64,000 nucleotides of DNA from Patescibacteria group bacterium (GCA_035291665.1 DATDRP010000004.1:22272-86271); one strand, 5' to 3'; shown: positions 1,248-30,686, numbered from the stretch's first letter. A program made the numbers and translations. The notes: a model not told the origin generated them from the letters alone.

Positions 1248-4200
1248 ATGACTGAAATTAGAAAGTTACATAAAGCCGGATCAAGAAGAATCAGCTACAA
1301 TCATTCGGAAGTTGAGAAATACTGGCAAAAAGTTTGGGATAAAGAAGGTCTGTACACTCCCGATATTCATAAATCTGAAAACAAATTTTATAACCTTTGG
1401 ATGTTTCCCTATCCTTCGGCAGAAGGAGTTCATGTAGGAACTATCTTTTCATCAACAGGGAGTGACGTTTACGGGAGATTTATGCGTATGAACGGATATT
1501 CTGTTTTTCAACCGATTGGTTTTGATTCGTTTGGCATTCACTCTGAAAATTACGCGATTAAAATAGGGGAAAATCCACGGTTTACACTAGGTAGAACTCT
1601 GCCACACTTCAAGAATCAATTCAAAATGATAGGTCATGAGTATGATTGGACTAAAACAGTGACAACGTCCGATATAGATTACTATAGATGGACACAGTGG
1701 ATATTTGTTGAATTGTTTAAAAGCGGTCTTGCATATCGCAAATATGTCAAGGTAAATTGGTGCCCTTCGTGTAAAACTGTGATTTCGGATGAACAGGTTG
1801 TAACACCTGCCCAAGCAGGTAAGGATCCAAGGGATGAGAATGGGGAGATCGTTAAAGAGGAAGAGGGGATGCGGGTTTGCGAAAGATGCGGCTTTTTGGT
1901 TCAGGATAAAGAACTTGAACAGTGGATGTTTCGGATTACTGATTATGCAGACCGGCTTCTTGACGGTCTTGGGGGTATTGATTGGCCGGAAAAAATAAAA
2001 ACCGCGCAAAAGAATTGGATTGGAAAAAGTACCGGGGCGCTTTTGACTTTTAACCTACAACCTACAACCCACCCCCCTGCGCACAAGGCTTCGGAAGGGC
2101 AAAGTATCCTACAACCAATTACAGTCTTTACAACCCGGCCAGATACGGTATTTGGTGCAACATTTATGGTGGTTGCCCCGGAATATGCGCAAAAATATCT
2201 ACTTAAATATATATCTGAAGATAAAATAAACGATGTAACAAAATATATCAATATATCCTTAAAGAAAACAAAGGACATCAGACTATTAAATAAGGAAAAA
2301 ACCGGCATTGAAACGGGATTGTTTGCTCTTAATCCGGCAACCAAGAAAGATATTCCTATTTATGTAGCCGATTATGTATTATCAGATTACGGGACAGGGG
2401 CAATTATGGCAGTTCCTGCTCATGATGAAAGAGATTTTGCATTTGCGAAGAAATTTAATCTACCGATTCATAAGGTAATAGATCAGACCTTGGAAACGCA
2501 TACGGTTTTGATAAAAAACAGCTTGGAGGATGGTTTTTCCGATGAAATTCAAAAAAACAATTGGTATCTGACTGATTATTTTGATTGGGGTTATGGATTA
2601 GTTCTTCCAGCTTCAGATGAGCACAAATTAATTGAGGTCATTCAAAAGTTTCTAAAATCTGGTCCTTGGTATGTGCATACCGACGGAAGTCTTAAAGCTG
2701 TTATTTTTAAAGATAAAGTTTTCAGTATCGAAAATGAAAATGAGCAGGCGAAAGATTATGCAAGAGAAATTTCTGTTACTGAAGAACAAATAGACTGGGA
2801 CAACAAGGATAACTATATGTTTTGCCACAATAAGAATGGGGTATTAGTCGATTCCGGTTCATGGAATGGTTTGAAGTATCCGGAAGATTACGAAAAGATA
2901 CTCTCTGATGTAGAAAAAAATGGCTGGGGGGAAAGAAAATCACAGTATCATCTTCGGGATTGGCTGATAAGCCGTCAACGATATTGGGGACCACCGATAC
3001 CGATGGTATTTTGTAGTAACTGTAAGAGTAAGGGTAAGAGTTGGTTTACATCTGAAAAATTTGATAACTACAAAAAACATATTAGAAATTCGAAATTAGA
3101 AATTAGAAATTTCGACGATTGGTCATCGTCAGGCTGGTATCCGGAAGAGAATCTTCCTGTTGAGCTTCCCGATATTCAAAATTATCAGCCTGAAGGCAAC
3201 GGCCGGGGGCCTTTGGCGAATCATCCTGAATTTTACAAAACTAAATGCCCGGAATGCGCAAGTGTTGCTAGAAGGGAAACCGATGTATCGGATACTTTTC
3301 TTGATAGTGCATGGTATTTTCTTCGTTATCCAAGCGTAAGAATAGAAGATCAGGAGAGTAGAAGAGTAGAAGATAAAAACAACTTACCTCTTACAACCGA
3401 CAACTTACAACTTCCCTGGTCACCGGAGGTAACCAGGGAATGGCTTCCGGTTGATCTTTACTTCGGCGGAGCAGAGCATGCTGTACTTCACCTTATGTAC
3501 GCGCGGTTCGTTTGGAAAGTATTGCGGGATTTGGGATATCTTGATTCCCAAAATGACGAACCCTTCCCGCGCTTTTTTGCACACGGATTGATGATAAAAG
3601 ACGGTGCCAAAATGAGTAAAAGCAAAGGCAACGTTGTCAACCCTGACGATTATGTGGAGAAATACGGCGCAGATACTTTACGGTTATACCTGATGTTCAT
3701 GGGACCGATGGATGGATATCCCGATTTCCGGGATACCGGTATCGAGGGAATGAGAAGATTTATCGAAAAACTTTATCAAGTTTTTCAAATGTCAGACGAC
3801 AAATATCAAATCACAAATAAAAATAAATTAGAGATAAAACAACATCAAACTATAAAAAAGGTGACCGAAGAGATACAACAATTCAAATACAACACTGCAA
3901 TTGCAGCGATTATGGAATACGTGAACTCGCTCCGCGAGTCAATTTCCAATTCCAAATTTCTAATTTCTAAACAACCAAAAAATTTGACAATAAAGCGATT
4001 CAGTGGTGATAAAATGGAAGAATCACCCACTTCTCAGGTTCTACAACCTACAACCTACAACCTATATCTACAAACTCTTGCACTTCTACTTGCTCCTTTT
4101 GCTCCGCACATAACCGAAGAGGTATGGCATAAAATCCTCGGTCACAAAAGTTCTATTCATCTTGCAAAATGGCCAAAATACGATTCGGAATTGGTTAAAG

Positions 4201-4400
4201 AGGAAACTATAACTATTCCGGTTCAAATTAATGGAAAACTAAGAGGCACAATTCAAATTGAGGCTGGTAAGTCAAATGATAAAGAATATGTTTTGAGCTT
4301 AGCCAAGGAAAATGAAAAAGTAAACAAATGGCTGAGTGCAGGAACGGTTAAAAAAGAGATTTATATTGAAGGTAGACTGGTGAATTATGTGGTCAGTTGA
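1248..4400 (+). CDS. leuS: leucyl-tRNA synthetase with several lineage-specific in-frame insertions
   Basis: 1050 aa. The N-terminal class-I catalytic core, the CP1 editing region (TRPDT), GGAEHAVLHLMYARF and the KMSKSKGN motif are all present. Low-complexity inserts such as LQPTT repeats and IRNSKLEIRNF interrupt the conserved blocks. Confidence 0.95.
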   Translation: MTEIRKLHKAGSRRISYNHSEVEKYWQKVWDKEGLYTPDIHKSENKFYNLWMFPYPSAEGVHVGTIFSSTGSDVYGRFMRMNGYSVFQPIGFDSFGIHSENYAIKIGENPRFTLGRTLPHFKNQFKMIGHEYDWTKTVTTSDIDYYRWTQWIFVELFKSGLAYRKYVKVNWCPSCKTVISDEQVVTPAQAGKDPRDENGEIVKEEEGMRVCERCGFLVQDKELEQWMFRITDYADRLLDGLGGIDWPEKIKTAQKNWIGKSTGALLTFNLQPTTHPPAHKASEGQSILQPITVFTTRPDTVFGATFMVVAPEYAQKYLLKYISEDKINDVTKYINISLKKTKDIRLLNKEKTGIETGLFALNPATKKDIPIYVADYVLSDYGTGAIMAVPAHDERDFAFAKKFNLPIHKVIDQTLETHTVLIKNSLEDGFSDEIQKNNWYLTDYFDWGYGLVLPASDEHKLIEVIQKFLKSGPWYVHTDGSLKAVIFKDKVFSIENENEQAKDYAREISVTEEQIDWDNKDNYMFCHNKNGVLVDSGSWNGLKYPEDYEKILSDVEKNGWGERKSQYHLRDWLISRQRYWGPPIPMVFCSNCKSKGKSWFTSEKFDNYKKHIRNSKLEIRNFDDWSSSGWYPEENLPVELPDIQNYQPEGNGRGPLANHPEFYKTKCPECASVARRETDVSDTFLDSAWYFLRYPSVRIEDQESRRVEDKNNLPLTTDNLQLPWSPEVTREWLPVDLYFGGAEHAVLHLMYARFVWKVLRDLGYLDSQNDEPFPRFFAHGLMIKDGAKMSKSKGNVVNPDDYVEKYGADTLRLYLMFMGPMDGYPDFRDTGIEGMRRFIEKLYQVFQMSDDKYQITNKNKLEIKQHQTIKKVTEEIQQFKYNTAIAAIMEYVNSLRESISNSKFLISKQPKNLTIKRFSGDKMEESPTSQVLQPTTYNLYLQTLALLLAPFAPHITEEVWHKILGHKSSIHLAKWPKYDSELVKEETITIPVQINGKLRGTIQIEAGKSNDKEYVLSLAKENEKVNKWLSAGTVKKEIYIEGRLVNYVVS

Positions 4401-5242: not shown

Positions 5243-6340
5243 GTGTTAAGAACAAAAGTAAAAAAGTATGACGTCCGGGAGATGGTGATTTTTATCACAA
5301 TTACTGTGATTGTAAGTCTCAAGATTGTTGTATTTTACAATTCTCAAAATAGATTGCCGGATGGGACTAAAATTAAGTTATCCGGTAAATTGACCAGCGA
5401 ACCGATACAGTATGATACGTCACAAGGGGTTTTCTTTTTGGGATATAAATTTTATTTACCTTTACAGCCAAAACTTAGTTATGGCGATGAAATAGTTGTT
5501 GTTGGGGTAACCGAAAAAGATAAATTGAAAAGTCCTCAACTGGTCCAAAACATCTCGGGTCGAATGGTGTATCAATTCCGTAATAAAATTCTGGGTTTTT
5601 ATAACAGAAGCCTTCCAAAAGACCATGCGGCACTCGTTGCCGGGGTGGTACTCGGAGCAAAATCAGGAATAGGGTACGACCTTTGGGAAAAGTTTAAATC
5701 CAGTGGAACCGCACATGTTGTCGTTGCTTCAGGTATGAATGTTACACTTGTTGCGGGATTTCTCCTGAATTTCCTTCTTCTATTTATCAAAAGACAATAT
5801 GCAATAGTATTTGCGATTATTGGTGTATGGCTGTATGCAGTGTTAAGCGGATTTGAAGCTCCGATCGTTCGTGCCTGTGTGATGGGATCTATTGCATTTA
5901 CCGCGCAAGAGTTGGGAAAACGGAATTTTGCCTATCGATCGTTATTCCTCACAGGATTTGTAATGTTATTTATTAACCCCTCATGGTTTTTTGATTTGGG
6001 ATTCTGGCTCTCATTCTTAGCAACGCTTGCGATCTTAAAATTTGAAAAGCCGATTGAATACAGGCTTCGTAAGATACCGGTTAAAGCTTTCCGTCAGGAT
6101 CTGTCAACCACACTTGCTGCCCAGATTGGTGTTTTTCCAATTCTTTATTATTTCTTCGGACAATTTAATATTTTCTCGCCTTTAATAAATGCAGTTGTTT
6201 TATGGACAATTGTACCGATAACCTTAATTGGTATGATATCCGGTTTGATTTCACTGGTATATGAACCCATCGGTACATTGATACTATATTTATCGTATCC
6301 GTTAACGAGTTGGTTTTTGACTGTCGTTAACCTCGTTTAA
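5243..6340 (+). CDS. comEC: ComEC/Rec2 membrane channel portion (competence domain), separate ORF
   Basis: Polytopic membrane protein with the ComEC competence-domain signature ...SSGTAHVVVASGMNVTLVAGFLLNFLL... It ends 17 bp before the MBL-domain ORF. Confidence 0.7.
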   Translation: MLRTKVKKYDVREMVIFITITVIVSLKIVVFYNSQNRLPDGTKIKLSGKLTSEPIQYDTSQGVFFLGYKFYLPLQPKLSYGDEIVVVGVTEKDKLKSPQLVQNISGRMVYQFRNKILGFYNRSLPKDHAALVAGVVLGAKSGIGYDLWEKFKSSGTAHVVVASGMNVTLVAGFLLNFLLLFIKRQYAIVFAIIGVWLYAVLSGFEAPIVRACVMGSIAFTAQELGKRNFAYRSLFLTGFVMLFINPSWFFDLGFWLSFLATLAILKFEKPIEYRLRKIPVKAFRQDLSTTLAAQIGVFPILYYFFGQFNIFSPLINAVVLWTIVPITLIGMISGLISLVYEPIGTLILYLSYPLTSWFLTVVNLV

Positions 6341-6356: not shown

Positions 6357-7259
6357 ATGGAAAGAAAATGGAAAATACTTTTTTCGATATTGATGCTTTG
6401 TTGCCTCACAGTCTGGTTATCAGTCTTTACAAGCAAGAGAAACCTTCATCTGATTGCTTGTGATGTCGGACAGGGAGACGCAACGCTCATTGTTTATAAA
6501 AAATATGACATTTTGATCGATGGCGGACCGAATAATAAAGTATTGGGCTGTCTATCGAAATATATGCCTTTTTGGGATAGAACAATCGAGATGGTAATTC
6601 TGACGCACCCGCAAAAAGACCATTACTTTGGACTGATAGAAGTGATGGCCAACTATAAAGTTGATTATTTCTTAGCAAATTCGATTGAATCAAGCAGTGA
6701 TGACTATCAAGTGCTAAAAAATGCAGTAGGGAGTAAGCCTACCAGAGTGGTTTCACCTGTCTTAGGCAATAGTTATAGATTGGATTTGATGTATTTGGAT
6801 ATACTTAACCCATCTCACGAGTTTATTGCACAAAATAGCCTTAAAAATAATGAGTCTGAAGGGCAGGTGCTTGGGACTTCAACAACGACAATGGATCCCA
6901 ATGAATTTTCAATTGTATTTGAGCTTAAATTTAAGGATTTTACCGGCATATTAACGGGGGACCTGAGCCCTGAAAAATCGAATGAAATAGCCTCGCTTAT
7001 AACCAATTTGGGTAATAAACCGGTTAACTATATCAAAATACCACATCATGGATCAAAGAACGGTTTATCCGAAAACTTATTGAGAATTCTTCAACCTCAG
7101 ATTGCAACGATCTCTGTAGGTAAAAATAACAGTTATGGCCACCCCAGCCCGGAAATTCTGAAAATGTTAAGTGATCAAAATGTTAAAACATTTCGAACGG
7201 ACGAGAGCGGGGATATTGTCATAGAAACCGATGGGGAGAAAATATGGGTGAATAAGTAG
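6357..7259 (+). CDS. comEC: ComEC C-terminal metallo-beta-lactamase domain, separate ORF
   Basis: HLIACDVGQGDATLIVYK, ILTHPQKDHYFGL (HxHxDH-like) and IPHHGSKNG motifs are typical of the ComEC MBL nuclease domain. An N-terminal TM helix is present. Confidence 0.75.
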   Translation: MERKWKILFSILMLCCLTVWLSVFTSKRNLHLIACDVGQGDATLIVYKKYDILIDGGPNNKVLGCLSKYMPFWDRTIEMVILTHPQKDHYFGLIEVMANYKVDYFLANSIESSSDDYQVLKNAVGSKPTRVVSPVLGNSYRLDLMYLDILNPSHEFIAQNSLKNNESEGQVLGTSTTTMDPNEFSIVFELKFKDFTGILTGDLSPEKSNEIASLITNLGNKPVNYIKIPHHGSKNGLSENLLRILQPQIATISVGKNNSYGHPSPEILKMLSDQNVKTFRTDESGDIVIETDGEKIWVNK

Positions 7260-7261
7260 GG

Positions 7262-7385
7262 AAAAGTTGTAGGGTGTAGGAAATAGGTTGTAGGAAATAA
7301 GAAGTAGGTTGTAGGAGATGGGAAATATAGTAATTAAGTAATTAAGAGAAAGAAATGGGTTGTGAGAAGTGAGATGTGAGTGGTG
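7262..7385. repeat. intergenic array of short degenerate tandem repeats: (taggttgtagga)x3, (taattaag)x2, (gtgag[a/t])x4
   Basis: Direct reading of the sequence. aggttgtag is the reverse complement of the ctacaacct motif repeated inside leuS and near 49141. Confidence 0.7.
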
Positions 7386-7414
7386 AGTATTAAGAATTTT
7401 AGACTAGAAATTTA

Positions 7415-7654
7415 CTACTGGGTACCACCCTTGGGAGGTTGTTTTGCAATCGTCAGGTCGGTATATGCCCGAAGTAAAAATCTAAAGGTGTTTTCGTATT
7501 TTATCTCTGATAAAATTACAATATCCTCTTCACTAAAACCATACTTAGGATCCCTAAGAATCCCTTCTCTTTTGACGGGATCACTTAGATCCAAACGACC
7601 ACGCTGTATAATAAAATCACTAGCTAGCTTTCCTAAGGATTCTTTTCCTGGCAT
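7415..7654 (-). CDS. hypothetical small protein (79 aa)
   Basis: Balanced charged composition. It overlaps a less protein-like plus-strand ORF (7380..7706). No motif was recognised. Confidence 0.25.
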   Translation of the reverse strand: MPGKESLGKLASDFIIQRGRLDLSDPVKREGILRDPKYGFSEEDIVILSEIKYENTFRFLLRAYTDLTIAKQPPKGGTQ

Positions 7655-8030: not shown

Positions 8031-9881
8031 ATGGATATTAAATCACAAATAATAAACTCTCTTCGTAAGGTAACGGGTGAGGAAGTGATGAAACTCGATG
8101 TACCTGAAAGGGAAGAGTATGGAGAATACTCCTCAAACATAGCGATGCAAATATTTGCAGGGGTAAAAGACCCGCCTGCCGGACTGGCAGGGCAAGAGAG
8201 TGGAAGAGTGGAAGATAAGGGAAATGTCATTGTGAATCCGAGCTTGTCGGGGACGAAGCAATCTTATTATAACAACCCCCGTCAGTTAGCAGAAGAGATA
8301 GTGAATAAATTAAATAACGATAAGGAACTTCTTGAAGTTGTCGAAAAAATTGATGTTGCCGGACCGGGTTTTATCAATTTCCATCTAAAACCTGACGCTT
8401 TGACAACAATTCTACGGGGGGTTTTGGAAGAGGGAAGTGATTACGGTCGTCTTTTTGTTAATAAAAATAAAAAGCTTTCATTTGAGTTTGGTCAACCGAA
8501 TACTCATAAACTGCCCCATATCGGCCATTTGTTCTCATACATTTTGGGATCATCCCTGTCAAACATCCTGGAAGAAACGGGCTACGAAATTCGCCGCGCA
8601 AATTATCAAGGGGACATTGGTCCTCATGTGGCAAAGTGTCTATGGGCATTTCTTAAAGAAAACCCAACGGTACCAGAGGACCTGGAAGGTAAAGTTAAAT
8701 TACTCCAATTAATGTACCAGCATGGAAGTGCCGCCTATGAAAAAGGTGGTACGGAGAAAGACGAAATTGATAAATTAAATCAGGACATTTACAACAATGT
8801 ACCGGAGGTACAGGAAATTCTTACAAAAACAAGAGAGTGGAGTAAAACTTATTATAAACAATTTGAAAAAAGATTAGATATTGAATTTGATCGATATTAT
8901 TATGAATCGGAAGTCCATCAAAAAGGATATGAATTGGTTAAAAATAATATCGGTAAAGTATTTTCGGAAAGCGAAGGTGCAGTTATTTATGAAGGAAGTA
9001 AAGCCGGACTCCACGACCGGGTTTTTATCACTTCCAGGAATACTCCAACATATGAAGCAAAGGACGTTTGTCTTGAGATCCTGAAATATGAAGAATTTCC
9101 ATATGACAAACTGATTATCACAACCGCAAGTGAACAAAATGAGTATTTCAAGGTAATTTTTTCTGCTATTGAAAAAGTTATGCCCGAACTTAAAGGAAAG
9201 CTTGAACATATCGGTTTCGGAATGGTAAACCTGAAATCCGGTAAAATGGCTTCGAGAACCGGCGAAATTATCGGTGCTGTTGATCTTGTTGACATGGTCG
9301 TAGCCGAAATCAGGAAAATTGTTGAGGATCGAAAAGACCTTTCGGAAGCTGAAAAAGAAGAGATTGCCGAAAGTGTCGGAATAGGCGCTGTAAAATATTC
9401 GTTTTTGAAGAATTCACCGCTCAAAGATACGAAGTTTGACATTAAAGAGAGTATTTCCAAGGAGGGCAATTCCGGGCCATATCTGCAATATACTTATGCA
9501 AGAACGCAGAGCGTTTTGGAAAAAGCGAAAAAACCGTCTACAGCCAACAGTCTACAGATAACAGAAAAACAAAAAACTGTAGACAGTAGTCTGTCAGCTT
9601 TAAGCTTGAACGAAGAAGAATTAAATATTCTTCGTTCACTTCTTCATTTTCCCGAAGCTGTCGAGGCTTCAGCTATCAGTTATTCACCCAATTTAATATG
9701 TAATTATGTTTATGATCTGGCTCAGAAATATAATACTTTTTATAACAAGCACGATATTTTGGAGCAAAGAACAAAAGATAAAAAGGTAAGCGAATACCGA
9801 TTATCATTAACAAAGGCAGTTGGGATAGTGATTGAAAATAGCCTCAAACTGCTCGGGATAAAAACACTCCTTAAAATGTAA
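8031..9881 (+). CDS. argS: arginyl-tRNA synthetase (an alternative upstream ATG at 7935 would add 32 aa)
   Basis: The N-terminal Arg_tRNA_synt_N-like segment (MDIKSQIINSLRK...VPEREEYGEYSSNIAM), the class-I motif PHIGHL and the C-terminal DALR anticodon-binding domain are present. A low-complexity insert ...GQESGRVEDKGN... also occurs. Confidence 0.9.
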   Translation: MDIKSQIINSLRKVTGEEVMKLDVPEREEYGEYSSNIAMQIFAGVKDPPAGLAGQESGRVEDKGNVIVNPSLSGTKQSYYNNPRQLAEEIVNKLNNDKELLEVVEKIDVAGPGFINFHLKPDALTTILRGVLEEGSDYGRLFVNKNKKLSFEFGQPNTHKLPHIGHLFSYILGSSLSNILEETGYEIRRANYQGDIGPHVAKCLWAFLKENPTVPEDLEGKVKLLQLMYQHGSAAYEKGGTEKDEIDKLNQDIYNNVPEVQEILTKTREWSKTYYKQFEKRLDIEFDRYYYESEVHQKGYELVKNNIGKVFSESEGAVIYEGSKAGLHDRVFITSRNTPTYEAKDVCLEILKYEEFPYDKLIITTASEQNEYFKVIFSAIEKVMPELKGKLEHIGFGMVNLKSGKMASRTGEIIGAVDLVDMVVAEIRKIVEDRKDLSEAEKEEIAESVGIGAVKYSFLKNSPLKDTKFDIKESISKEGNSGPYLQYTYARTQSVLEKAKKPSTANSLQITEKQKTVDSSLSALSLNEEELNILRSLLHFPEAVEASAISYSPNLICNYVYDLAQKYNTFYNKHDILEQRTKDKKVSEYRLSLTKAVGIVIENSLKLLGIKTLLKM

Positions 9882-21383: not shown

Positions 21384-22229
21384 TTAGGGGTAATTAATAT
21401 TAATCGGTTTATTTGGTTTTGATTTATCTTTTTTTCTGGCAATGATAAAGGCGATGACAAGAATTAGTAATACCAAAATCGATCCACCAATTATAACCAA
21501 TTTATTATTAGGATTGAAAATTCCGGAAGTTGAAGTGTAAACCCTTTCACCTGCGGGTTGGTTAGTGTCGGGGTTTGTTTTCGGATTCAAGGAGGGAAGA
21601 GGTCCTTCCGCATCGATTCCTTCTGTGAGAGACGTTTCATCAACCGAATCTGACCCACCCGTTGAATTCTCCGTGGGAGTAATGAGTAGTGTATCGTTTG
21701 CTTTCGGATCGGTGTTTTGGTATATGTATCCGGAAAAATTAGAAACCCTGCTTAGAATGTCACCTGTACCTTGGGAAACTGCTATGTTTGAATCAACAGT
21801 GCTTCCGGGTTCAAAATAAAACCAGACTTTTGCATTGCCTTCTTTGATTGCCTGGAATTTAATTTTAGCAAGTTCTCCCTTTCCGTTATAAGGTTTGTCG
21901 GGTGAATTAACAACACCGGATACGGTTACGGAACCTGTGTCATTATTGAAAAAAACCGAAGGGAAGTCATCGTAAATATCAGAAGCGTCAATTGCAACTA
22001 CTTTCAAAAGATTTGAATTAAAGAACAGTTTTGCACCCGCACCAAGTGAATTTTCACCATCGGTGTTTATCATTACTGAGATATCAATAACATCATATTT
22101 CTTAAGCGATGCCGATGCTGGATCCAAATAAAATTCCGGATTGGCAGCATGAATCTCACTAAAAGATAACAAAAATAGACTTACCAAAAAGACACTAAAT
22201 ATTTTTAAGTGAAGCACTTTTTTATTCAT
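21384..22229 (-). CDS. membrane-anchored protein with one cohesin-like domain (putative anchoring scaffoldin)
   Basis: Signal peptide, then a ~150-aa beta-sandwich-like segment whose pattern (...GAGAKLFFNSNLLKVVAID...SVFFNNDTGSVTVSGV...GKGELAKIKFQAIKEGNAKVWF) parallels cohesin signatures. A Thr/Ser/Pro/Asn-rich linker, a C-terminal TM helix and a KKDKSK stop-transfer follow. Confidence 0.55.
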   Translation of the reverse strand: MNKKVLHLKIFSVFLVSLFLLSFSEIHAANPEFYLDPASASLKKYDVIDISVMINTDGENSLGAGAKLFFNSNLLKVVAIDASDIYDDFPSVFFNNDTGSVTVSGVVNSPDKPYNGKGELAKIKFQAIKEGNAKVWFYFEPGSTVDSNIAVSQGTGDILSRVSNFSGYIYQNTDPKANDTLLITPTENSTGGSDSVDETSLTEGIDAEGPLPSLNPKTNPDTNQPAGERVYTSTSGIFNPNNKLVIIGGSILVLLILVIAFIIARKKDKSKPNKPININYP

Positions 22230-22253
22230 GTAAGAGATTTTACGAAGCTAAAG

Positions 22254-24500
22254 TTAGAGCTGATCCTTCAATAGATTCCAGTTATGTCTCATGATGACAT
22301 AATCAAGGTTATTAATACTTCCGCTTCGATCCAAGTCAACCAAGGACAGAGCTGTGCCGTAGTTGGGGAGCATATTAAGCGTGTAGTCGATCTCGTTTAT
22401 TTCACCGTCTCCATTAAAGTCTCCGCCCAGAAGTATCGGGTTTGAAAGATCAAGATACGAGTTTGTGGTTGATATTACAACAGGGTTTGTATCGCTTCCG
22501 TATTTTCTCGGGAGATATCCTGCAGTCTGAATCAGGAAAACATAATTACCTGTGGCGATTGATAGGATTGCTTCTCCTGCTGTATTTGTGGTTGCGGTTG
22601 TTTGAGTGATCGTTGTTGTATTGGGTTTACGATAAGAAACTGTGATGTTCGCACTGTTACTTACCCCGGTTCTCAACTTTCCCTGCATCTTGATTTTCAA
22701 AGTAACACTTGATGGAGAAGGAGTATTCGTAGCCGATACCGATGTCGGGGTAGCAGTAGGAGGTACATTTGTAGGTGTTGCGGTTGGTACAGATGTGGGT
22801 GGAACTGCAGTCGGACTGACTATGGCTCCGGGTTGAGAATATACTTCAAATTCTGCAAGCTGGAAGTAGTAATTATTATCAGAAGCATTTATTCTCAACT
22901 TTGTTGCATTAATCCTGACATATCTTGCAGTAACTTGCGTGAAGGAGAATGACTGGACGTTACTTGTCGGAAGCGCATAATTCGTAAGGTTTGCGACAGT
23001 TGTCCAAGTCGAATTATTTTGGGAAACCTGAACTGCAAAGTCGATCGGAAAGCCTTGTCCGACGTTTGAAACGTCATTTCTGGGATAAAGATTGACTTTT
23101 CCAACTGTATAGTTTGTTCCCAAATCAACGGTTATCCATTCAGTATGGGAGACACTCAAATTACTAAAACTACTCCATCCGAATGGTGCTGCGGATGAAC
23201 TTGTGTTTCCGTCAACTGCACCTGTTTTGAACCAACCCCAGTTTTCAATTGAGCTGGATGCCAGAACTGCTTTATTGAGTGCCAAATTCAAGTTTGATTG
23301 AATCGTCGGTGTGGCTGTTGGAATTTGTGTGGGAATAGCAGTTGGCTGTACGGTAGGTTGAACAGTCGGCGTTGCTGTCGGAGTTTGGCTGCCTGTTATT
23401 ATTACGGACGTCCCGTTGACGCTTGTCAGGATATCTACCGGATCTTGAGTATTCCATGTTCCGGTAAGAACCATATTCGAGTCATTTCTACCTCCCGGAG
23501 TAAAGTCGAATGTAATCTGAGATCCGGAACTAACTGCGACTCCTTTGAAAATGATATCCCCAACATGGATATTCGATCCGTTAACAGGAGTGGTTGAGGT
23601 GCCGGATCCGACATTAACTGAAATATACGCAGTTCCGGTCGTATTATTGAAAGTTAGTCTTGGGGTTGAGGTAAATCTTGGTTCATTTCCTTTTACAACA
23701 GTCACGGCTTGAAGTACTGCCGGATTGTAGTTTACTATCGCGTCAATACCGTCAACGTTTTGTCCGGCCGTATCTCCATAGATACTTACTGTAAATTGAG
23801 TGTTCAGCGTCTTTGTGCCAGGATTTGTAAGGAAAAGCCTTGCAGAACTTACTGGATTTACGGTGATATTGGCTGGAGTTGTCTGAACACCGAGCAAAAC
23901 TGATTGCATGTTATATACTTCTGTGGATTGAGACAGGCTTACTACGGCTGTTTGATTTGAGTTTGAAGTATTTTGATCGAATGTCAGCTTTGCGATGTTG
24001 GCTATGCCGGAGAGTGGTGGTGCCGGTTGAGGAGTCGGAGTACTATCGTTATATCCGATTGCGATTACCAACCTGAAGCTACCCGTTGTATTTGCCGAGG
24101 CCATTGAAGTTTTTTGAACGACTGTCCAATATTGGGGGATTACTTGGATTTCTTGAGTAAGTTTGACCATCGTAGGATCAAAATTTCCTTGCAAATCGAC
24201 AAATCCCACCTGTTCACCCTGAGTATTAATATTAAGATCGAGTGTTGTTGAAGGAGGGACGGATGCCGTAGAAGGACTCAAGTAAAGACTAACTGTTGTG
24301 ACAGCCGCCTTCAGCCTAAGTCTGATTTCTCTTTGGACTAAATAAACTCCCACAATTGCAGAGATTGTCAGAAAAATTACCAATCCAAGCTGCATTGGAT
24401 GAAGTTTTTTAAGTTTGGCAAGCAAAACTCGAAACGCTTTTTTTAAGTCGACTACATTTTTTAACATAAATAAAAAATATGTCTTTATTAACAACATCAT
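22254..24500 (-). CDS. scaffoldin-like protein: N-terminal TM anchor, two cohesin-like domains, F5/8-type-C (discoidin/CBM32-like) domain, divergent C-terminal dockerin-like module
   Basis: - Cohesin-like patterns: VGFVDLQGNFDPTMVKL...SGIANIAKLTFD and VDGIDAIVNYNPAVLQAVTV...GDIIFKGVAVSSGSQITFDF.
- Discoidin signature: ...WSSFS...EWITVDLGTNYTVGKVNLYPRND...
- C-terminus: GGDFNGDGEINEIDY...DLDRSGSINNLDYVIM, two Ca-loop-like segments. Confidence 0.6.
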   Translation of the reverse strand: MMLLIKTYFLFMLKNVVDLKKAFRVLLAKLKKLHPMQLGLVIFLTISAIVGVYLVQREIRLRLKAAVTTVSLYLSPSTASVPPSTTLDLNINTQGEQVGFVDLQGNFDPTMVKLTQEIQVIPQYWTVVQKTSMASANTTGSFRLVIAIGYNDSTPTPQPAPPLSGIANIAKLTFDQNTSNSNQTAVVSLSQSTEVYNMQSVLLGVQTTPANITVNPVSSARLFLTNPGTKTLNTQFTVSIYGDTAGQNVDGIDAIVNYNPAVLQAVTVVKGNEPRFTSTPRLTFNNTTGTAYISVNVGSGTSTTPVNGSNIHVGDIIFKGVAVSSGSQITFDFTPGGRNDSNMVLTGTWNTQDPVDILTSVNGTSVIITGSQTPTATPTVQPTVQPTAIPTQIPTATPTIQSNLNLALNKAVLASSSIENWGWFKTGAVDGNTSSSAAPFGWSSFSNLSVSHTEWITVDLGTNYTVGKVNLYPRNDVSNVGQGFPIDFAVQVSQNNSTWTTVANLTNYALPTSNVQSFSFTQVTARYVRINATKLRINASDNNYYFQLAEFEVYSQPGAIVSPTAVPPTSVPTATPTNVPPTATPTSVSATNTPSPSSVTLKIKMQGKLRTGVSNSANITVSYRKPNTTTITQTTATTNTAGEAILSIATGNYVFLIQTAGYLPRKYGSDTNPVVISTTNSYLDLSNPILLGGDFNGDGEINEIDYTLNMLPNYGTALSLVDLDRSGSINNLDYVIMRHNWNLLKDQL

Positions 24501-24532
24501 ATTCCTGTAATGTTGTCAATAGCCTTGTTAGA

Positions 24533-25858
24533 TTATAGACTATAATTCCCAAACCAAACAATATAATCAGCGCCATTTACGATCCCGTCTCTATTAAAAT
24601 CTCCGACAATATTTCCCGAAGTTGTGGGTTTTTGATAGTTTGTAAACCAAATTAAGTAATCGGCGCCGTTTGCCTTGCCGTCTCCATTTGCATCACCGGA
24701 ATTTGACCGAATCGAAGTCGGGTATACCGAAGGCAACTGATCGCTAGCTGGGACAACCACTTCTACATAATTTGACAATACAGATTCCGATCCGTTTATA
24801 TTAACAGCCGAAACGTTATAAATATATGTTTTACCCGATGTAACGCTTGTATCGGTATACGAAGTCTGATTTGCAGTAAAATCGGGGCCGTATCCGCCAT
24901 CGTCGCGCCCAATCCGATAATGGGAAATGTAGGGAGTAGTAGATGAATTCCAGGAAAGCGATACCGATTTTGATGTGATTCCCGTGACTTTCAAATTTGA
25001 AGGAGCACATACAGCGGTTCTTATTACGTTTGCAGACGAGGATACGTTACCGGAATTATCCTGGGCTGTTACTTCATAGCTGTAAGAACCACAAGACAAC
25101 GATTTATCAGTATATTGATAGCTTTCAGTAACTTGATCCATGATCGGAGTGAAGCTGTGAATTTTTGTACCGTTACGCCAAATAGAATAATTCGGAATAT
25201 CGCGATTATCTTTGGATGCAGTGCTTGTCAATTCAAAACTGTATTGCATATAATCTGAAGTGTTCTTAACGGTCAGATACGGCGCAGTCGGAGCAGTTTT
25301 GTCGACAATATTTATTATATTGTAATCAAAAGCTTCCCATTCCTCATTAAATCCAAGGTCGGGATTGAATGCATGGGCGACAACCAAATAATCTCTAACG
25401 GGATATAAATTGCTGTCGAAAGAACAGGTGAATGGAGCTGAGAAGTCAGTACACAGTTCCCAAACGTTTGGTTTATCATAATTTTCTTCCAGTCCGAATT
25501 TGACATATTTGACATCACCTGTAGTTGTGACAGTTATGTTTACCAATCCTTCAGCACTATAACCCTCTTGGGGTGAAGTGACTGTGATTGTGATCAGACC
25601 GAGTGGGGGTGTGGGAAGCGGTGTGACGGTAGGGGTGGGAACTCCGCAAGACCAAATGCAGGATGTATCGTTTGAACAAGATGAGTACTCAAAACTTGAA
25701 CAATAGGAAGGACCTGTACAACAGGAATACGCTTCGGATCTTTCGGCGGTTTTCGGATTTTGTGTAAAAAAGATGGCTATATATAAAGTGACGGATAAGA
25801 TCCCGACTGCGGAAATCTGAAGGAATAACGGTTTTTTTAATTTGTTAAGAAAATGCAT
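24533..25858 (-). CDS. secreted Ig-like/fibronectin-III repeat protein with C-terminal dockerin-like module
   Basis: N-terminal hydrophobic anchor or signal, a Cys-rich segment and Fn3-like repeats (SNLKVTGITSKSVSLSWN...). C-terminal GDANGDGKANGADYLIWFTNY...GDFNRDGIVNGADYIVWFGNY. Confidence 0.65.
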   Translation of the reverse strand: MHFLNKLKKPLFLQISAVGILSVTLYIAIFFTQNPKTAERSEAYSCCTGPSYCSSFEYSSCSNDTSCIWSCGVPTPTVTPLPTPPLGLITITVTSPQEGYSAEGLVNITVTTTGDVKYVKFGLEENYDKPNVWELCTDFSAPFTCSFDSNLYPVRDYLVVAHAFNPDLGFNEEWEAFDYNIINIVDKTAPTAPYLTVKNTSDYMQYSFELTSTASKDNRDIPNYSIWRNGTKIHSFTPIMDQVTESYQYTDKSLSCGSYSYEVTAQDNSGNVSSSANVIRTAVCAPSNLKVTGITSKSVSLSWNSSTTPYISHYRIGRDDGGYGPDFTANQTSYTDTSVTSGKTYIYNVSAVNINGSESVLSNYVEVVVPASDQLPSVYPTSIRSNSGDANGDGKANGADYLIWFTNYQKPTTSGNIVGDFNRDGIVNGADYIVWFGNYSL

Positions 25859-25957
25859 ACTCAGGTTATTTTAAGAATATGCTTAAAAGGAATTGATTGT
25901 CAAACAAAAATATTCAAAGAGGGTAAATGAATTTCGCTATTTATACGTATTTCAAGA

Positions 25958-26074
25958 ATACCCCATCTGAAGGCAATTGCCGAAGGATGGGGATGAATTG
26001 AATTAAGAATGTAACCTCGTTTAGACGGATCCGAAAGGATACCCCGCCTGAAAGCGACAGCGAGAGGGTGGGGA
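25958..26074. repeat. tandem duplicated hairpin element (2 x ~55 bp): taCCCCaTCtgaaggcaattgccgaaggaTGGGG / taCCCCgCCtgaaagcgacagcgagagGGTGGGG
   Basis: Two adjacent stem-loops with 7-bp G/C stems sit in the intergenic gap between two minus-strand dockerin genes. The spurious 60-aa ORF 25900..26082 shows the repeat as HPxAxAFRxGIL x2. Confidence 0.55.
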
Positions 26075-26103
26075 GGTTTCATATCAATGTATAAGAAAAT
26101 AGA

Positions 26104-28005
26104 TCACTTCCCGTAATTTCCGAACCAGATGATGTAATCAGCTCCGTTAACTATGGTATCTCTATTAAAATCTCCTGCTGATGGACCTTGGCTGGTTGTT
26201 TTTTTGTAGTTATTAAACCAGATCAAGTAATCGGCTCCGTTTACTTTTCCGTCGCCATTTGCATCCCCCGGTTTTGAAGTCGCCGTCGGGGTGGCTGTTG
26301 GAGTAACACTCGGTCCGCCGGTTGGCGGAGTAGGAGTAGATGAAGCCTGCGGTGTAGGCGAGGGTGGTATCGAACCGTTTACACTTATAGCTGTTGAAAA
26401 TTCACTTGCCAGTCCCGACCACTCAACCGATTTAACTTTAAACCAGGTATTTGATGTTGATCCTTGGTATCCGATACTGCCTGTATACAACCAGACAAAA
26501 GAGTCGTTCCAATGCTCGGCCGCGGTTGATCCCAGTACTCCTCGGACCAAGCCTGTAAACGAGGTGGGGGTCCTGCCGGTATAACTGACTAGTTCATTTG
26601 GTTTTTCGGATGACAGACCGGATATCTCCAGTGTACCTTGATCTGGAAAACCTGTTGTAGAATCTACATTAATTGAAGTTTGGTTATTTGTAATTTTGCT
26701 GGGAGCGTTCAGGTACGTTAACAATGAGGGGAGCAATGCAATCTGGTTATAAGTTCCCCCCTGGCTGGTGGAACCGTATATTTGATATTCCTTAATTTCC
26801 CGATGGTTAGGAGCGGGTTTAAAAGTGACTATTACATTACCGCCCGACGAAACCGCTTTCATATCAGAAGGTGCGGCGGGTTTCTTAAAAATAACATAGT
26901 AGAGATTTTTGTTTCCAGCTTGGCGAATATCTCCGCTAAATGCAATTTTAGTCGTATCGGGACTGAAGCTGGCGTTGACATAATCCCTGCCCGCATCACT
27001 CCCGTAATTTGCCACTCTTACCGGAGCCGATCCGGAAGTTGTGAGCGGTTGCGGAACACTGAAGACAAGAACGTGACCAACCTCGCCTCCAAGGTTAGCT
27101 CCCAGAACCATCCATTTAGCGTCAGGACTGAAGTTGGTGTGATCGCCATAAACTGCACCGTTTATCATAGTTAATTGTCTGGTTGCCGTATCTCGGGCAA
27201 AAAGAGTATTTGCATATTGAAAATCCGACCCATTCCCTCCGATCCAACCTTGACCTCCACCAATCATATAAGCAGAATCGGACAGGGTAGGATGGTCAAA
27301 AAGTCCTGCCCAGGTTTGGTTCCCTACATTAAGCTGGCCAAGAAATGTACCGGTATTAACATCAAAAACCATCGGTACATCTGTATATTGTTCCCATTGG
27401 CTATTATTAAGATACCAAGCGGCATTGTTACCCAGCCAGCCGTGGGTAACATCAAACCCACCTGACTGTCTGCCGGGGGAAACATAACCACGGCAATTTG
27501 TACCGTCAAGGTTAATGAACTTAACTGTACCTGTCCCGGAGCTGATATCGTTGGAGTTAGCAATACCTGAGAGTGTCCTTCCGTCGGGGCTAAGCATAGA
27601 AAAATAAAAAGGGAGGCAGGATGAGGCATTTGGAATTTGTGAAGATATGTTAGCGGCGATTTCTGTTTGGTAGAGATTTTCTTTTGAATAGTAGAACTTG
27701 CTGTCGTGGCTCCACCATCCCATCAGACCTTCCCCGACACCGCTGGAAGGGGCGCTTAAAGTGTGATTATTGTTTCCGTCAGTATTCATAACGTTATTAG
27801 GTCCGGTGATTATATATTGGCCATTAGGACTGAATGGGTTGGAAGTGTAATAAGAGGTAGGGTAGCTTGCAGAAGTATTAGTCATTCGCCATATTTCAAA
27901 GCCGGTTTCCGGATCGGTAAAGATTTCCTTGGGAGCTGCCTGAACAGGTGAGACAAAGATGGTAATAGTTAATATTGCGATAAAAACCTTAAACCAATGT
28001 GACAT
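26104..28005 (-). CDS. secreted beta-propeller (TolB/WD40-like) plus Fn3-like protein with C-terminal dockerin-like module
   Basis: Signal peptide, repeated propeller-blade-like segments, a Fn3-like domain, a TP-rich linker (TPTATPTATSKP) and GDANGDGKVNGADYLIWFNNY...GDFNRDTIVNGADYIIWFGNYGK. Confidence 0.65.
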   Translation of the reverse strand: MSHWFKVFIAILTITIFVSPVQAAPKEIFTDPETGFEIWRMTNTSASYPTSYYTSNPFSPNGQYIITGPNNVMNTDGNNNHTLSAPSSGVGEGLMGWWSHDSKFYYSKENLYQTEIAANISSQIPNASSCLPFYFSMLSPDGRTLSGIANSNDISSGTGTVKFINLDGTNCRGYVSPGRQSGGFDVTHGWLGNNAAWYLNNSQWEQYTDVPMVFDVNTGTFLGQLNVGNQTWAGLFDHPTLSDSAYMIGGGQGWIGGNGSDFQYANTLFARDTATRQLTMINGAVYGDHTNFSPDAKWMVLGANLGGEVGHVLVFSVPQPLTTSGSAPVRVANYGSDAGRDYVNASFSPDTTKIAFSGDIRQAGNKNLYYVIFKKPAAPSDMKAVSSGGNVIVTFKPAPNHREIKEYQIYGSTSQGGTYNQIALLPSLLTYLNAPSKITNNQTSINVDSTTGFPDQGTLEISGLSSEKPNELVSYTGRTPTSFTGLVRGVLGSTAAEHWNDSFVWLYTGSIGYQGSTSNTWFKVKSVEWSGLASEFSTAISVNGSIPPSPTPQASSTPTPPTGGPSVTPTATPTATSKPGDANGDGKVNGADYLIWFNNYKKTTSQGPSAGDFNRDTIVNGADYIIWFGNYGK

Positions 28006-28058
28006 GGAAGTAATTTAATAATCCATCAAAGTGAGGGTTGATGTCAATAAAATTCAAT

Positions 28059-30686
28059 TTATTTCCCGTAATTCCCGAACCAGATGATGTAATCAGCTCC
28101 GTTAACTATGGTATCTCCATTAAAATCTCCTGCTGATGGACCTTGGCTGGTTGATTTTTTATAGTTATTAAACCAGATCAAGTAATCGGCTCCGTTTACT
28201 TTTCCGTCGCCATTTGCATCCCCCGGTTTTGAAGTCGCCGTCGGGGTGGCTGTCGGTATGATCGTCGGTATGGGAGTAGATATTCCGGTTGGGAAGGCCG
28301 TTGGTATAGGTGTGGATGTTGGTACGGGACTTCCGGTGTGGACTGCTTTGATGGCAATATCTTTATTAAGACCGCTTACGGGTATGGACAATGTACCTCC
28401 AGACGAGATTACACTGGTTGTAACTGCACCGGTATAAGTATTCCAGTACTCAATATTATATGTTCCCGCCTGAAGGTTCGGGATAGAAACGGTCGGATTG
28501 ATCGTCCCTGGTGTACCGGTATTTGACCAAATATAATCCCGATGCTGTACCCAAAGATATGCCCGGTAGCGGTCTCCGCTCACCAGTGCAAAGGCGCGGG
28601 TTTTACCTCCGGTATCGTTTTGGACAGAAAGCGTAGTACCGGTGTATCCGGATGGGGTGTCGGCCGCAGTCATGACGGAGGTGAAATTACTGGTTGAAAA
28701 ACTGATATTCTGAAAGAAATTTTTCATTACAAGTTTTTCCTGATTTACTAAATTTGAATATGAGCTGTCGTTTTGATTGTCATACCAGAATATGGGAGTG
28801 GTAGCCATTGGTGAGAACAGTCCGGTCCAGGCTCCATTATGATGTGCCCGGTGGGCACCCTCTCCGGTGGTTCCCTGCGGATTTGGCTGGTTCCATTCCG
28901 TCGTTCCCACACCGATTTCACCCCAGACAAACGGGCGGGGAGCCGATCCGGGTGTCCAATCGGTGCTGTCGCCGATACCCAAACCGTCGCAGTAATATTT
29001 ACCATACTGTCGGCCGTAGAGACACCAGGCAAAACGATGCACGAAGTTGACTTCATCGTTAGTAAGAGCGGAAGAGTAGCGGCTGATCATCATATAATCA
29101 TGGTAATTGGTGAGGTTGAATGCAGGGGAGGACCAGAATGCCGGACTGAATGCCTGAGATCCCTGGGAAGTGGTGCGCATGTGCTGGTAAATATCGGTTT
29201 GCTTCTGATAATCAGCATACTGTTGGAAGAAATTAAATATTGATGTATTTGGAAGAACATGGCCAAGCTCATTATGGTTTTCCCAGGCAAGAATTGATGT
29301 TGCGTATCCCCACCGGGCCACACGGTAACGGAAATTCCGCTGCCAGCTTTTCAGTACCCACGGTTGCGACCAGTCCCAGGAATCAGGCGATTCAGGGTTA
29401 CCCGGCCAGGTAAACCAGGGACCCGAGCAGGAACAAAGCTGGATATAGACACTATTGGTTACTCCTGCGTCGATATACTGATCTTGCAGCCAGCATTCTT
29501 CCGGATTGAAGTAATTACCTAACGGACGGGGTAGCGTTGTATTCGAATTCGGATCGTTATTGACATTATCCTTGGCGAAATGCCGTTCCATATCACCGTC
29601 TGTTACTATCGAATAAAGGATGTTTCCCTGCGCGTCTACCGGTCCGAATTCAACATCATCAACATAACCACTACCTTGGAAGTAGACTACTAGATCCGAT
29701 GAAGGAGTATATGTGCGTTCTGAAAGGGTATAACTGGTGGAGTTGGCGTCGATCTGGGTGCCGGAGATTACGCTTCCCGGAAGCACCCCATTCAGTGACC
29801 TGAGGGATACGGTGACAGTGCCTTTGGTCCAGACTTTTAATTTATGGGAGCGGTTGGGTTCGGTGACAGCTAAACGTTGATACCAGGCTGTTCCGGGTTG
29901 AGCTGCCCTCATACCGGAATGGGTATTAGTATTGATTGTTACTCCGACGGCAGCCCCGTCTGTCGTGGAAGCATTAATCCAGGTTGTATGAGCGCCTTCG
30001 ACCCCCAGTGAAAAATCATTCTGGTCCCAAATCCGGATCAAATTAATTCCGTACTGCTTATCCTGAACAAATCTGCTTTCGTAGTTATCTCCCCAGGGAT
30101 ACCCGCGGGAAAGGGGGACATATGACGAGCCGTTGTCAAACACCATGTACCGGGGATCCTGTGGATTAGGCTTTATAAATCCCGGATTGGAATTGTCGGC
30201 TGTGATGCTGAAAGTTTGGGCAGAGGTTTGGGTCTTACCTTCTTTATCTTCAGCACTGACAGTATAAGAATAAGTTCCGACCTCCGACCAGGTGAACCGT
30301 CCTTTCCACACGGGAAGACCGGACTTACCCATAACATTTCTGCTTCCGACAATGTGCCGGGTGTAATCCTGGTAAAAGAATGCCGGAAGTACAAGCTGTT
30401 TACCGCTGGGTGTAGTGATGTTGATATTAACGGTTACTCCATCCACACCAAACCATGTCATACGCGACGGGTTTGCTGCCTGGGTGTCAGACGGATCGTA
30501 GAAATAATAAGGATTGGGGTACGTTTTGGATAGATTAAATGAGAATTCGATTTTCTGATATTTTTTAACCGATGCTGACGAAGGAGAAACCGTAACAGGT
30601 CCGGTAACCTGCGGGGCGGCTGCCTTTACCGGTACAGAAGAAATAGCAAGAAATAAAAAAATTAGAATAGCTTTTTTATATAGCAT
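28059..30686 (-). CDS. secreted putative glycoside hydrolase (N-terminal beta-sandwich plus TIM-barrel-like domain) with C-terminal dockerin-like module
   Basis: Signal peptide. An internal segment LAWENHNELGH is reminiscent of a clan GH-A catalytic NE motif, but the family is unassigned. The C-terminal linker and dockerin are nearly identical to those of the 26104 gene. Confidence 0.55.
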   Translation of the reverse strand: MLYKKAILIFLFLAISSVPVKAAAPQVTGPVTVSPSSASVKKYQKIEFSFNLSKTYPNPYYFYDPSDTQAANPSRMTWFGVDGVTVNINITTPSGKQLVLPAFFYQDYTRHIVGSRNVMGKSGLPVWKGRFTWSEVGTYSYTVSAEDKEGKTQTSAQTFSITADNSNPGFIKPNPQDPRYMVFDNGSSYVPLSRGYPWGDNYESRFVQDKQYGINLIRIWDQNDFSLGVEGAHTTWINASTTDGAAVGVTINTNTHSGMRAAQPGTAWYQRLAVTEPNRSHKLKVWTKGTVTVSLRSLNGVLPGSVISGTQIDANSTSYTLSERTYTPSSDLVVYFQGSGYVDDVEFGPVDAQGNILYSIVTDGDMERHFAKDNVNNDPNSNTTLPRPLGNYFNPEECWLQDQYIDAGVTNSVYIQLCSCSGPWFTWPGNPESPDSWDWSQPWVLKSWQRNFRYRVARWGYATSILAWENHNELGHVLPNTSIFNFFQQYADYQKQTDIYQHMRTTSQGSQAFSPAFWSSPAFNLTNYHDYMMISRYSSALTNDEVNFVHRFAWCLYGRQYGKYYCDGLGIGDSTDWTPGSAPRPFVWGEIGVGTTEWNQPNPQGTTGEGAHRAHHNGAWTGLFSPMATTPIFWYDNQNDSSYSNLVNQEKLVMKNFFQNISFSTSNFTSVMTAADTPSGYTGTTLSVQNDTGGKTRAFALVSGDRYRAYLWVQHRDYIWSNTGTPGTINPTVSIPNLQAGTYNIEYWNTYTGAVTTSVISSGGTLSIPVSGLNKDIAIKAVHTGSPVPTSTPIPTAFPTGISTPIPTIIPTATPTATSKPGDANGDGKVNGADYLIWFNNYKKSTSQGPSAGDFNGDTIVNGADYIIWFGNYGK

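Follow-up and report, generated by a model that had tools for sequence, protein, structure and literature searches.

Heptanucleotide tandem repeats in the spacers and aminoacyl-tRNA synthetase genes of a Woesebacteria genome, probably of the simple-sequence type

What generates clusters of short, degenerate tandem repeats between the genes of a small bacterial genome, and do such clusters serve their host? The question is raised by the spacer at positions 7260-7414 of a 64,000-nt stretch of DNA (GCA_035291665.1 DATDRP010000004.1:22272-86271; hereafter, the window) from a Patescibacteria group bacterium, a member of the Woesebacteria within the candidate phyla radiation (CPR), with a GC content of 38%. 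This spacer extends from the stop codon (7259) of a metallo-beta-lactamase (MBL) open reading frame (ORF) to an orphan ORF on the - strand, orf79 (7415-7654, 79 aa), and holds several adjacent arrays of tandem repeats. The original prediction for this DNA described a family of imperfect repeats with 7-12-nt units at many gene boundaries, naming five sites, and took the recurrence of one motif at unlinked places as an argument for a shared generating process, a mini-element or a protein-binding motif, rather than independent slippage. The arrays are here interpreted as probable heptanucleotide-period simple-sequence repeats (SSRs) of the cyanobacterial STRR (short tandemly repeated repetitive) type, which would result from slippage or tandem duplication biased towards 7 nt and would then be filtered by selection.

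The focal cluster is contained in a C-less tract of 174 nt (7230-7403; A68 G61 T45, with no C on the + strand) that comprises the last 30 nt of the comEC MBL ORF and the whole of the repeat cluster. C-less runs of at least 60 nt occur four times in the window, against a mean of 0.22 (maximum 1) in 50 shuffles. The first part of the cluster (7266-7327, + strand) consists of nine in-register heptamers of the form GNNNTAG (GTTGTAG, GGTGTAG, GAAATAG, GTTGTAG, GAAATAA, GAAGTAG, GTTGTAG, GAGATGG and GAAATAT), detected by Tandem Repeats Finder (TRF) at periods 7, 14 and 21. Units resembling GAAATAG alternate with GTTGTAG, which is complementary to CTACAAC; this gives a 21-nt higher order that is repeated three times with 76-78% identity, and the array as a whole is the reverse complement of the CTACAAC family, forming inverted pairs with positions 4025-4069 of leuS. 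It is followed on the same strand by an octamer array, (AGTAATTA)x2.2, at 7329-7346 (TRF, 100% matches), and by four heptamers of the form GTGAGNN (GTGAGAA, GTGAGAT, GTGAGTG and GTGAGTA) at 7362-7391, of which TRF reports the row 7362-7380 (period 7, x2.7), the rest being read in the sequence.

The tract shows no tendency to fold, since the minimum free energy of its - strand RNA is 0 and the + strand does no better than shuffles (z=0.22). The Rfam search at E<=1 returned only tRNA and one far-below-threshold antisense match on a tRNA, and a scan for promoters and terminators found two sites of each kind, near shuffle expectation, with no terminator-like site in 7260-7414. A structured non-coding RNA, riboswitch or terminator was consequently rejected. 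Iterons, or a similar protein-binding array of 17-22-bp units at an origin or a replication or partition gene, were rejected as well: the cluster does have a 21-nt periodicity, but the cumulative GC skew changes monotonically, the genes on either side are comEC and tRNA-Arg/argS, and the cluster is missing in syntenic spacers. The syntenic spacers between MBL and argS in the 10 relatives inspected contain at most one weak two- to three-copy array each, and no such cluster. Arrays do not keep their positions in other spacers either: that between atpA and atpG contains 218 nt of arrays in L044 (one of 42 related loci designated by L numbers), compared with 26 nt in the window genome. What fills the focal spacer is thus an unstructured expansion specific to this lineage, for which no function of its own can be demonstrated.

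Repeats were called with TRF in the whole window, using 30 dinucleotide shuffles as the null. The number of rows at all periods is 59, compared with 14.0±3.7 in the shuffles, and the excess is about tenfold at period 7 (19 rows versus 1.8±1.1); it extends to period 14 (5 versus 0.43) and period 8 (9 versus 2.4), while periods 10 and 11 are near shuffle expectation and some two-copy rows scoring 30-33 are at chance level. Both the reading of the sequence and TRF find a degenerate tandem repeat at each of the five sites named beforehand. Their unit length, announced as 7-12 nt, was not borne out: the dominant unit in TRF is 7 nt, with some of 8, 14 and 21 nt, so that the window contains head-to-tail 7-nt copies dispersed at many loci, together with period-14 and period-21 higher orders. 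The ctacaacct/aggttgtag motif does recur in both orientations and also within leuS, as had been noticed. CTACAACCT is found exact at 2055 and at 4041, 4048 and 4055 (+ strand, in leuS, the last three spanning 4041-4063) and at 7285 and 7306 (- strand), with one-mismatch copies at 49141-49163. Allowing one mismatch, there are 30 matches, whereas shuffles give 10.4±3.2 (maximum 17); within the window, then, the motif is commoner than composition predicts and its units are not unique to each site. The repeats are a real and over-represented class.

The same excess is found in part of the relatives. The 42 related loci, when pooled, contain 111 period-7 arrays against 18.7 expected, and the observed and expected numbers are 18 and 0.3 in L004, 14 and 0.7 in L014, 12 and 0.5 in L008, 9 and 1.0 in L035, 8 and 0.5 in L007, and 5 and 0.2 in L044. 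The ratio of observed to expected reaches 10-60 in seven related genomes, and about 17 other loci have no period-7 array. In a neighbour-joining tree of LeuS the window groups with the repeat-rich L004 and L044, and other rich genomes are placed beside poor ones. On this tree the trait is patchy: some relatives show it strongly and others not at all. Such a distribution among related small genomes makes feasible a comparative search for the replication or repair factor responsible.

Contrary to the first description, the arrays are not mainly intergenic: 31 of the 48 repeat clusters of the window are within ORFs. Relative to its length, however, intergenic DNA carries about 3.4 times as many period-7 arrays as ORFs do. 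In 11 repeat-rich genomes, 92 of 131 arrays of period 7, 8, 14 or 21 (70%) are in ORFs, despite the enrichment in spacers, because 91% of the DNA is ORF. Classified by period, ORF arrays are most frequent at period 7 (60 arrays), compared with 12, 22 and 11 at periods 6, 9 and 12, and period 7 is also modal in intergenic DNA (20 arrays). That the same period predominates in coding and non-coding DNA, outnumbering those that keep the reading frame, points to a mutational bias and not to selection for in-frame units.

Selection is probably reflected instead in where the coding arrays are located and in what they are made of. Eight of the 27 clusters of period 7, 8, 14 or 21 in the window are in leuS (p=3e-5), and all eight period-7/8 arrays of this gene correspond to gapped or hypervariable segments among ten Woesebacteria LeuS, unaligned to Thermus thermophilus LeuRS (leucyl-tRNA synthetase); two arrays in argS are likewise in variable loops. 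The leuS arrays are read through in frame, TAG having been changed to TCG, CAG or AAA by single substitutions. Among coding arrays, 41% lack G on the sense strand, compared with a background of 16%; this fits a filter against stop codons, since neither TAG nor TGA can form without G. Units without G or C are over-represented in general (67% versus 44%). A three-letter composition was considered as a structural signature and discarded, since in ORFs it is largely stop-codon avoidance and the bias in spacers is weak (n=33); among the signals of this type only the 174-nt C-less tract remains striking. For annotation, these arrays explain odd low-complexity peptides in otherwise conserved proteins (IRNSKLEIRN, LQPTTYNL and QESGRVEDK), and by lengthening surface loops of LeuRS and ArgRS (arginyl-tRNA synthetase) translated arrays offer a concrete route to lineage-specific insertions in CPR proteins.

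The composition of the units fits an origin by slippage. AAAT, AATT, AAAA and TTAG are over-represented in them, words containing CG are under-represented, and a GC-richer block at 21384-40897 (GC content 0.433, compared with 0.368 in the rest of the window) holds only one of the 27 arrays (p=0.001). This block contains eight - strand genes for large proteins (410-881 aa), with weak dockerin matches and PQQ beta-propeller, F5/8 type C, fn3, Laminin_G3, CBM6 and GDSL-lipase domains, and one 281-aa ORF without domain match; it may be a recently acquired island, or its genes may be under different constraints. HutP-like (UAG-N4)n arrays, or a common 'TAR-R' core, were proposed and abandoned, because TAG/CTA is only mildly enriched in the units (26% versus 16%), far less than AT-rich words.

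These observations are probably best accommodated by strand slippage or tandem duplication throughout the genome, strongly tied to a register of 7 nt, with 8 nt rarer and 14 and 21 nt representing higher orders. The spectrum of periods, the composition of the units and the contrast with the GC-richer block suggest that the process would favour AT-rich, low-complexity units. The arrays would persist where they do little harm, and they are in fact seen in short spacers, such as 7260-7414, and in tolerant loops of leuS and argS, where those in frame would be translated into low-complexity peptides. Selection would strip in-frame stops and favour G-less sense strands in coding DNA, in agreement with the substitutions and the strand composition described above.

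Similar repeats are known from other bacteria. PMC4692102, citing Mrazek et al. 2007, reports that heptameric SSRs are in excess in many bacteria, together with the hypothesis that polymerase slippage causes this, and the same paper cites Mazel et al. 1990 for the cyanobacterial STRR, which are heptanucleotides. The arrays of the window resemble both in their 7-nt tandem units, dispersed at many loci and over-represented relative to other unit lengths, in their per-base enrichment in intergenic DNA, in the adjacency of arrays with different units and in the presence of both strands and inverted pairs. They differ in their host, a CPR bacterium (Woesebacteria) instead of a cyanobacterium or Xanthomonas, in their AT-rich, varied units and short arrays (2-9 units), and in being mostly in-frame translated insertions in ORFs, concentrated in aminoacyl-tRNA synthetase loops. 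The canonical STRR1-3 units are CCCCAGT, TTGGTCA and CAACAGT. Neither these units nor GGGAATC or GGGGAYT form a tandem pair in the window, and TAACTGA, a heptamer discussed below, has eight single occurrences, none of them in tandem; the window repeats are therefore of the same kind as STRR, and not of the same sequence family. A literature search, incomplete in coverage, found no report of heptamer repeats in CPR/Patescibacteria; the heptanucleotide excess, recognised in 1990 and 2007, is thus extended to reduced CPR genomes, with a patchy distribution among close lineages.

TAACTGA forms direct heptamer repeats in marine Beggiatoaceae, cyanobacteria and Bacteroidetes (MacGregor 2015, PMC4679880), which are comparable in having 2-6 copies at many loci, a patchy phylogeny, some copies beside start codons and some at tolerated ORF positions, with units that contain stops in all frames being restricted in placement. 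In that system, however, one unit dominates, related heptamers being rarely repeated, and most arrays are directly upstream of start codons in one orientation, whereas dozens of units are found here, in mixed orientation and mostly in coding DNA. Another parallel is offered by the Borgs, whose tandem repeats, according to Schoelmerich et al. 2023 (PMC9879509), create intrinsically disordered protein regions, those in ORFs being under strong selection and giving perfect amino-acid repeats. On that account both sets of repeats are pervasive and lineage-specific, occupy spacers and ORFs, add low-complexity peptides and have hotspots in the same loops of homologues. In the window, unlike the Borg repeats as described there, the 7-nt unit is out of frame, so that a peptide repeat is reached only every 21 nt, the arrays are degenerate, with ad hoc stop repair, and the hosts are housekeeping enzymes instead of mainly extracellular proteins.

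Several facts weigh against slippage as the whole explanation. A set of 123 period-7 arrays includes 80 pairs with the same unit, whereas 10.5 are predicted from the plain background of 7-mers and 23.6±5.2 (maximum 47) from a null with random seeds that is GC-matched and array-masked. The 19-mer CTACAACCTATTTCCTACA at 7275-7293 (- strand) has a copy with two mismatches at 49155-49173 (+ strand), where 0 are expected. The (ATTAGAA)n array of leuS is identical in 31 of 31 nt between the window and L034, with flanking codons diverged and proteins about 55% identical, and an ATTAGAA array is also present in argS of L008. Neither the recurrence of units, nor the shared 19-mer, nor the ATTAGAA identity would be expected if arrays arose purely by local slippage from random seeds. 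In addition, no change in copy number has been seen at the population level, LeuS being invariant in 9 contigs and in its 90% cluster, and slippage as such does not account for a register of 7 nt. That a few units recur in both orientations suggests that ectopic copying between arrays may occasionally have been added to local slippage. Of the shared generating process that had been proposed, the single class with its period-7 bias and the recurrence of units beyond the null have thus been retained, and no common element or site has been found. Opposing such a process to independent slippage was unjustified, since 7-nt-biased slippage is the simplest explanation for each array and only the recurrence of some units needs something more.

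The most serious alternative takes this recurrence as its starting point. Units would be copied between unlinked loci, and even between genomes, as minimal mobile or trans-templated DNA, and would expand locally afterwards; template switching, gene conversion, or the addition of repeats at breaks by a reverse transcriptase or a telomerase-like enzyme are among the possible routes. We consider this alternative rather unlikely. In a more specific and equally tentative version, a sequence-selective trans-acting process in some Woesebacteria would seed certain heptamers (ATTAGAA with its GAAATTN relatives across genomes, and CTACAAC in the window genome) at unlinked sites in either orientation, and this seeding, aminoacyl-tRNA synthetase loops included, could proceed by ectopic template switching or by a templated polymerase or reverse transcriptase at breaks. 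If it were true, no smaller kind of mobile DNA would exist than these arrays, which would also drive the growth of protein loops in CPR bacteria. The unit AAATTAG (ATTAGAA/AATTTCT) makes nine arrays on both strands, spread over six genomes and located in leuS, argS and spacers; arrays of the CTACAAC family are found in both orientations at five loci within 50 kb of the window; and AAGAGTAG arrays are found in leuS and argS of the window and at 18923 of L004, outside the leuS match of that locus. With up to three mismatches, the 19-mer has 4 matches (0 expected), two of which, with 0 and 2 mismatches, are unlinked spacer arrays of opposite orientation. The excess of shared units over the GC-matched null and the patchy phylogenetic distribution are also compatible with such a process. 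However, 36 of the 80 same-unit pairs come from AAATTAG, the rest being within about twofold of the null, and the apparent conservation of ATTAGAA DNA is in part a consequence of avoiding stop codons in a fixed frame. Common flanks, terminal repeats, a fixed length and target duplications are all lacking in the copies, and no reverse-transcriptase or transposase domain is present among the gene calls that cover the window.

The mini-element of the original prediction finds no support for the same reason, its supposed copies having no shared flanks, terminal inverted repeats, constant length or fold, and elements of the MITE (miniature inverted-repeat transposable element), REP (repetitive extragenic palindromic) or SDR (small dispersed repeat) type were rejected, since dispersed copies in both orientations exceed chance but lack defined ends, constant length and a hairpin. 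The SDR/MITEs of Nostoc, which Elhai et al. are said to have described in 2008, reportedly are about 20-27 nt long, are dispersed in both orientations and are associated with tandem heptameric repeats. The 19-21-nt composite CTACAAC-CTATTTC-CTACA found in two spacers of the window is of reportedly similar size, but it consists of three degenerate heptamers, with no element boundaries, no predicted hairpin and only 2-3 related copies in 64 kb. A universal ATTAGAA element was also dropped. The sequence (GAAATTA)3 occurs in at least 120 metagenome contigs with GC contents of 0.25-0.63, and it is found in 54 viral contigs, no more often than composition-matched control heptamers (39 and 57), CTACAAC being found in 14; ATTAGAA is not globally special, because such controls are about equally common there. 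The metagenome (GAAATTA)n arrays have 3-11 units, are often flanked by arrays of GGAAATT, GGAATTC, TAGAATT or GGAAACT, and are also present in metagenome-assembled genomes (MAGs) of giant viruses. As a class, heptamer arrays appear to be widespread in environmental DNA.

A second alternative, distinctly unlikely in our judgement, is that the arrays bind a protein able to read single strands of RNA or DNA without structure, 7 nt at a time, the candidates being S1, cold-shock, CsrA-like or Rho-type proteins, and that at gene boundaries they have a part in initiating translation or in termination. The - strand transcript of 7230-7403, G-free and C-containing, would be a Rho-utilisation-like tract downstream of orf79. 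Such a role is suggested by the density in spacers, 3-4 times higher per base, where arrays often fill the whole gap between stop and start, by the (TTAGAAA)n arrays directly upstream of start codons in L004, L008 and L044, by the unstructured character of both strands of the focal tract and by the comparable function proposed for the TAACTGA heptamers of Beggiatoaceae (PMC4679880). Nevertheless, units vary between sites and between genomes, their orientation relative to flanking genes is mixed, the 70% of arrays within ORFs have either orientation, and arrays are missing from the syntenic spacers of relatives; furthermore, orf79 has no Pfam match and no homologue in the 42 related loci, and may not be a gene. 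The protein-binding motif suggested at first is not supported, on similar evidence: no conserved site was found, the cluster is missing from the syntenic spacers of the 10 relatives inspected, and the units are also coding, in either orientation.

Phase-variable contingency loci, in which the gain or loss of 7-nt units switches genes or alters promoters, are very improbable. The unit length is not a multiple of three, as in classical contingency SSRs, and several arrays are near start codons, but the main hosts, leuS and argS, are essential, single-copy genes in which a change of one unit would be lethal, and the arrays are short (2-5 units) and degenerate, with fixed substitutions that avoid stops. 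The only other copies of this genome region (ENA ERZ27254851 and JGI 3300002503) are 100% identical over 14.4 kb, the next-closest LeuS having 61% identity, and the collection of 15 billion proteins contains no near-identical or length variant of LeuS. Since the two assemblies are identical and LeuS has no length variant, the coding arrays are probably stable and not phase-variable. This identity also speaks against an assembly artefact, the arrays (<=62 nt) being probably shorter than typical reads. That the arrays are an artefact of assembly, or sequence of low complexity produced by chance in an AT-rich genome, hardly deserves consideration, since, despite the GC content of 38% and the shuffle-level rows mentioned above, it is refuted for the period-7, 14 and 21 class by the tenfold excess over dinucleotide-preserving shuffles, by a 174-nt C-less run that goes far beyond the shuffles and by the counts in relatives. 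Simple slippage does not account for the spread of a few units.

The remaining arrays of the window, all given on the + strand, follow the same pattern, and most of them are in leuS (1248-4400, 1050 aa), whose product has 43-57% identity to LeuS of Candidatus Woesebacteria, Microgenomates and Patescibacteria MAGs. The octamer array (TAATATCC)x3.9 (1158-1188) is 60 nt upstream of this gene, in a 61-nt G-less tract (1149-1209). Within leuS, (AACCTAC)x2.6 at 2052-2069 encodes NLQPTT, in an insertion relative to homologues, and (GTAAGA)x3.3 at 3022-3041 encodes KSKGKS, with DNA identical in the nearest relative, L044. The (ATTAGAA)x4.4 array (3081-3111) encodes IRNSKLEIRN and has one ATTCGAA unit, which removes an in-frame TAG; (AAGAGTAG)x4.5 (3338-3373) encodes IEDQESRRVEDK, with CAG or AAA in place of in-frame TAG. 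They are followed by (ACAACTT)x5 (3379-3413), a one-base variant of the CTACAAC family, by (ACAAATA)x4.1 (3799-3826), in a variable loop of the alignment, by (AATTTCT)x4.3 (3941-3970), the reverse complement of the array at 3081, with which its inverted pairs are 87-95% complementary, and by a perfect (CTACAAC)x3.4 (4041-4064), encoding LQPTTYNL. Inverted pairs with the same unit are thus formed by 3081-3111 and 3941-3970, 836 nt apart, and by 4025-4069 and 7265-7309, separated by 3.2 kb, with 76-95% complementarity overall. Both orientations are found side by side in two other LeuS, P0004 and P0026 (RNSNSENLKSFGFRISDFDI).

L044 has its own heptamer arrays in leuS (AATTGGA, CAAATTC and TTAGGCA), whose loops coincide in part with those of the window, and a 33-nt tandem duplication (x2.3; L044 10199-10274) near the 5' end of the gene that encodes FYKRSLQNGKP repeats. 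Behind its editing domain, the LeuS of the window also has about 110 inserted residues (2493-2825, aa 416-526), an insertion which is common to a Woesebacteria subset (P0002-P0005) and unaligned to T. thermophilus LeuRS. P0007 has a different, longer insert at this site, and both P0007 and P0012 give a NUDIX (PF00293) match; domains seem to be swapped frequently at this site in CPR LeuRS. A LeuS structure predicted with AlphaFold2 from a 10-sequence alignment was too poor (mean predicted local distance difference test score, pLDDT, of 54) and was not used.

In argS, (AGAGTGGA)x2.4 (8197-8215) encodes QESGRVEDK in a variable loop, and a (GTCTACA)/14-mer array (9532-9564) is also in a variable loop. 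A 21-nt direct repeat between leuS (3803) and argS (8035) was set aside, a rough estimate placing it near chance for AT-rich sequence. Further downstream, six heptamers of the form CGTWTYW (42139-42186; CGTATCA/TCGTATT, period 7/14) fill a 72-nt spacer between two + strand genes. The CTACAAC-family array CTACCTACAACCGACAACCTAAAACCTATTTCCTAAA (49139-49173), which includes (ACCTACA)x3.7 at 49139-49164, is located 11 nt past the stop of a - strand gene. A divergent spacer contains (ACAAGTC)x2.7 (51538-51556), together with 51317-51339 (AGAGAAA) and 51596-51622 (AATAATTT), and an (ATAGTAT)/14-mer array (52748-52779) is located in a 68-nt C-less spacer.

The gene order of the focal region, leuS, comEA, comEC, MBL ORF, variable spacer and argS, is kept in about 30 related loci. 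The slot between MBL and argS is variable within this conserved order, with spacers from about 8 nt to several kb in relatives (L001-L041), several of which look roomy enough for other, unrelated ORFs. In the window, a tRNA-Arg(CCG) gene is located at 7794, downstream of orf79, and it is retained in L003, L008 and L012. comEC consists of two adjacent ORFs, one with the Competence domain (5243-6340) and one with the metallo-beta-lactamase domain (6357-7259), and their junction, together with the start codon of the second, is covered by (AAAGAAAATGG)x2.3, a tandem repeat with an 11-nt unit. Both parts also give adjacent, separate tblastn matches in relatives.

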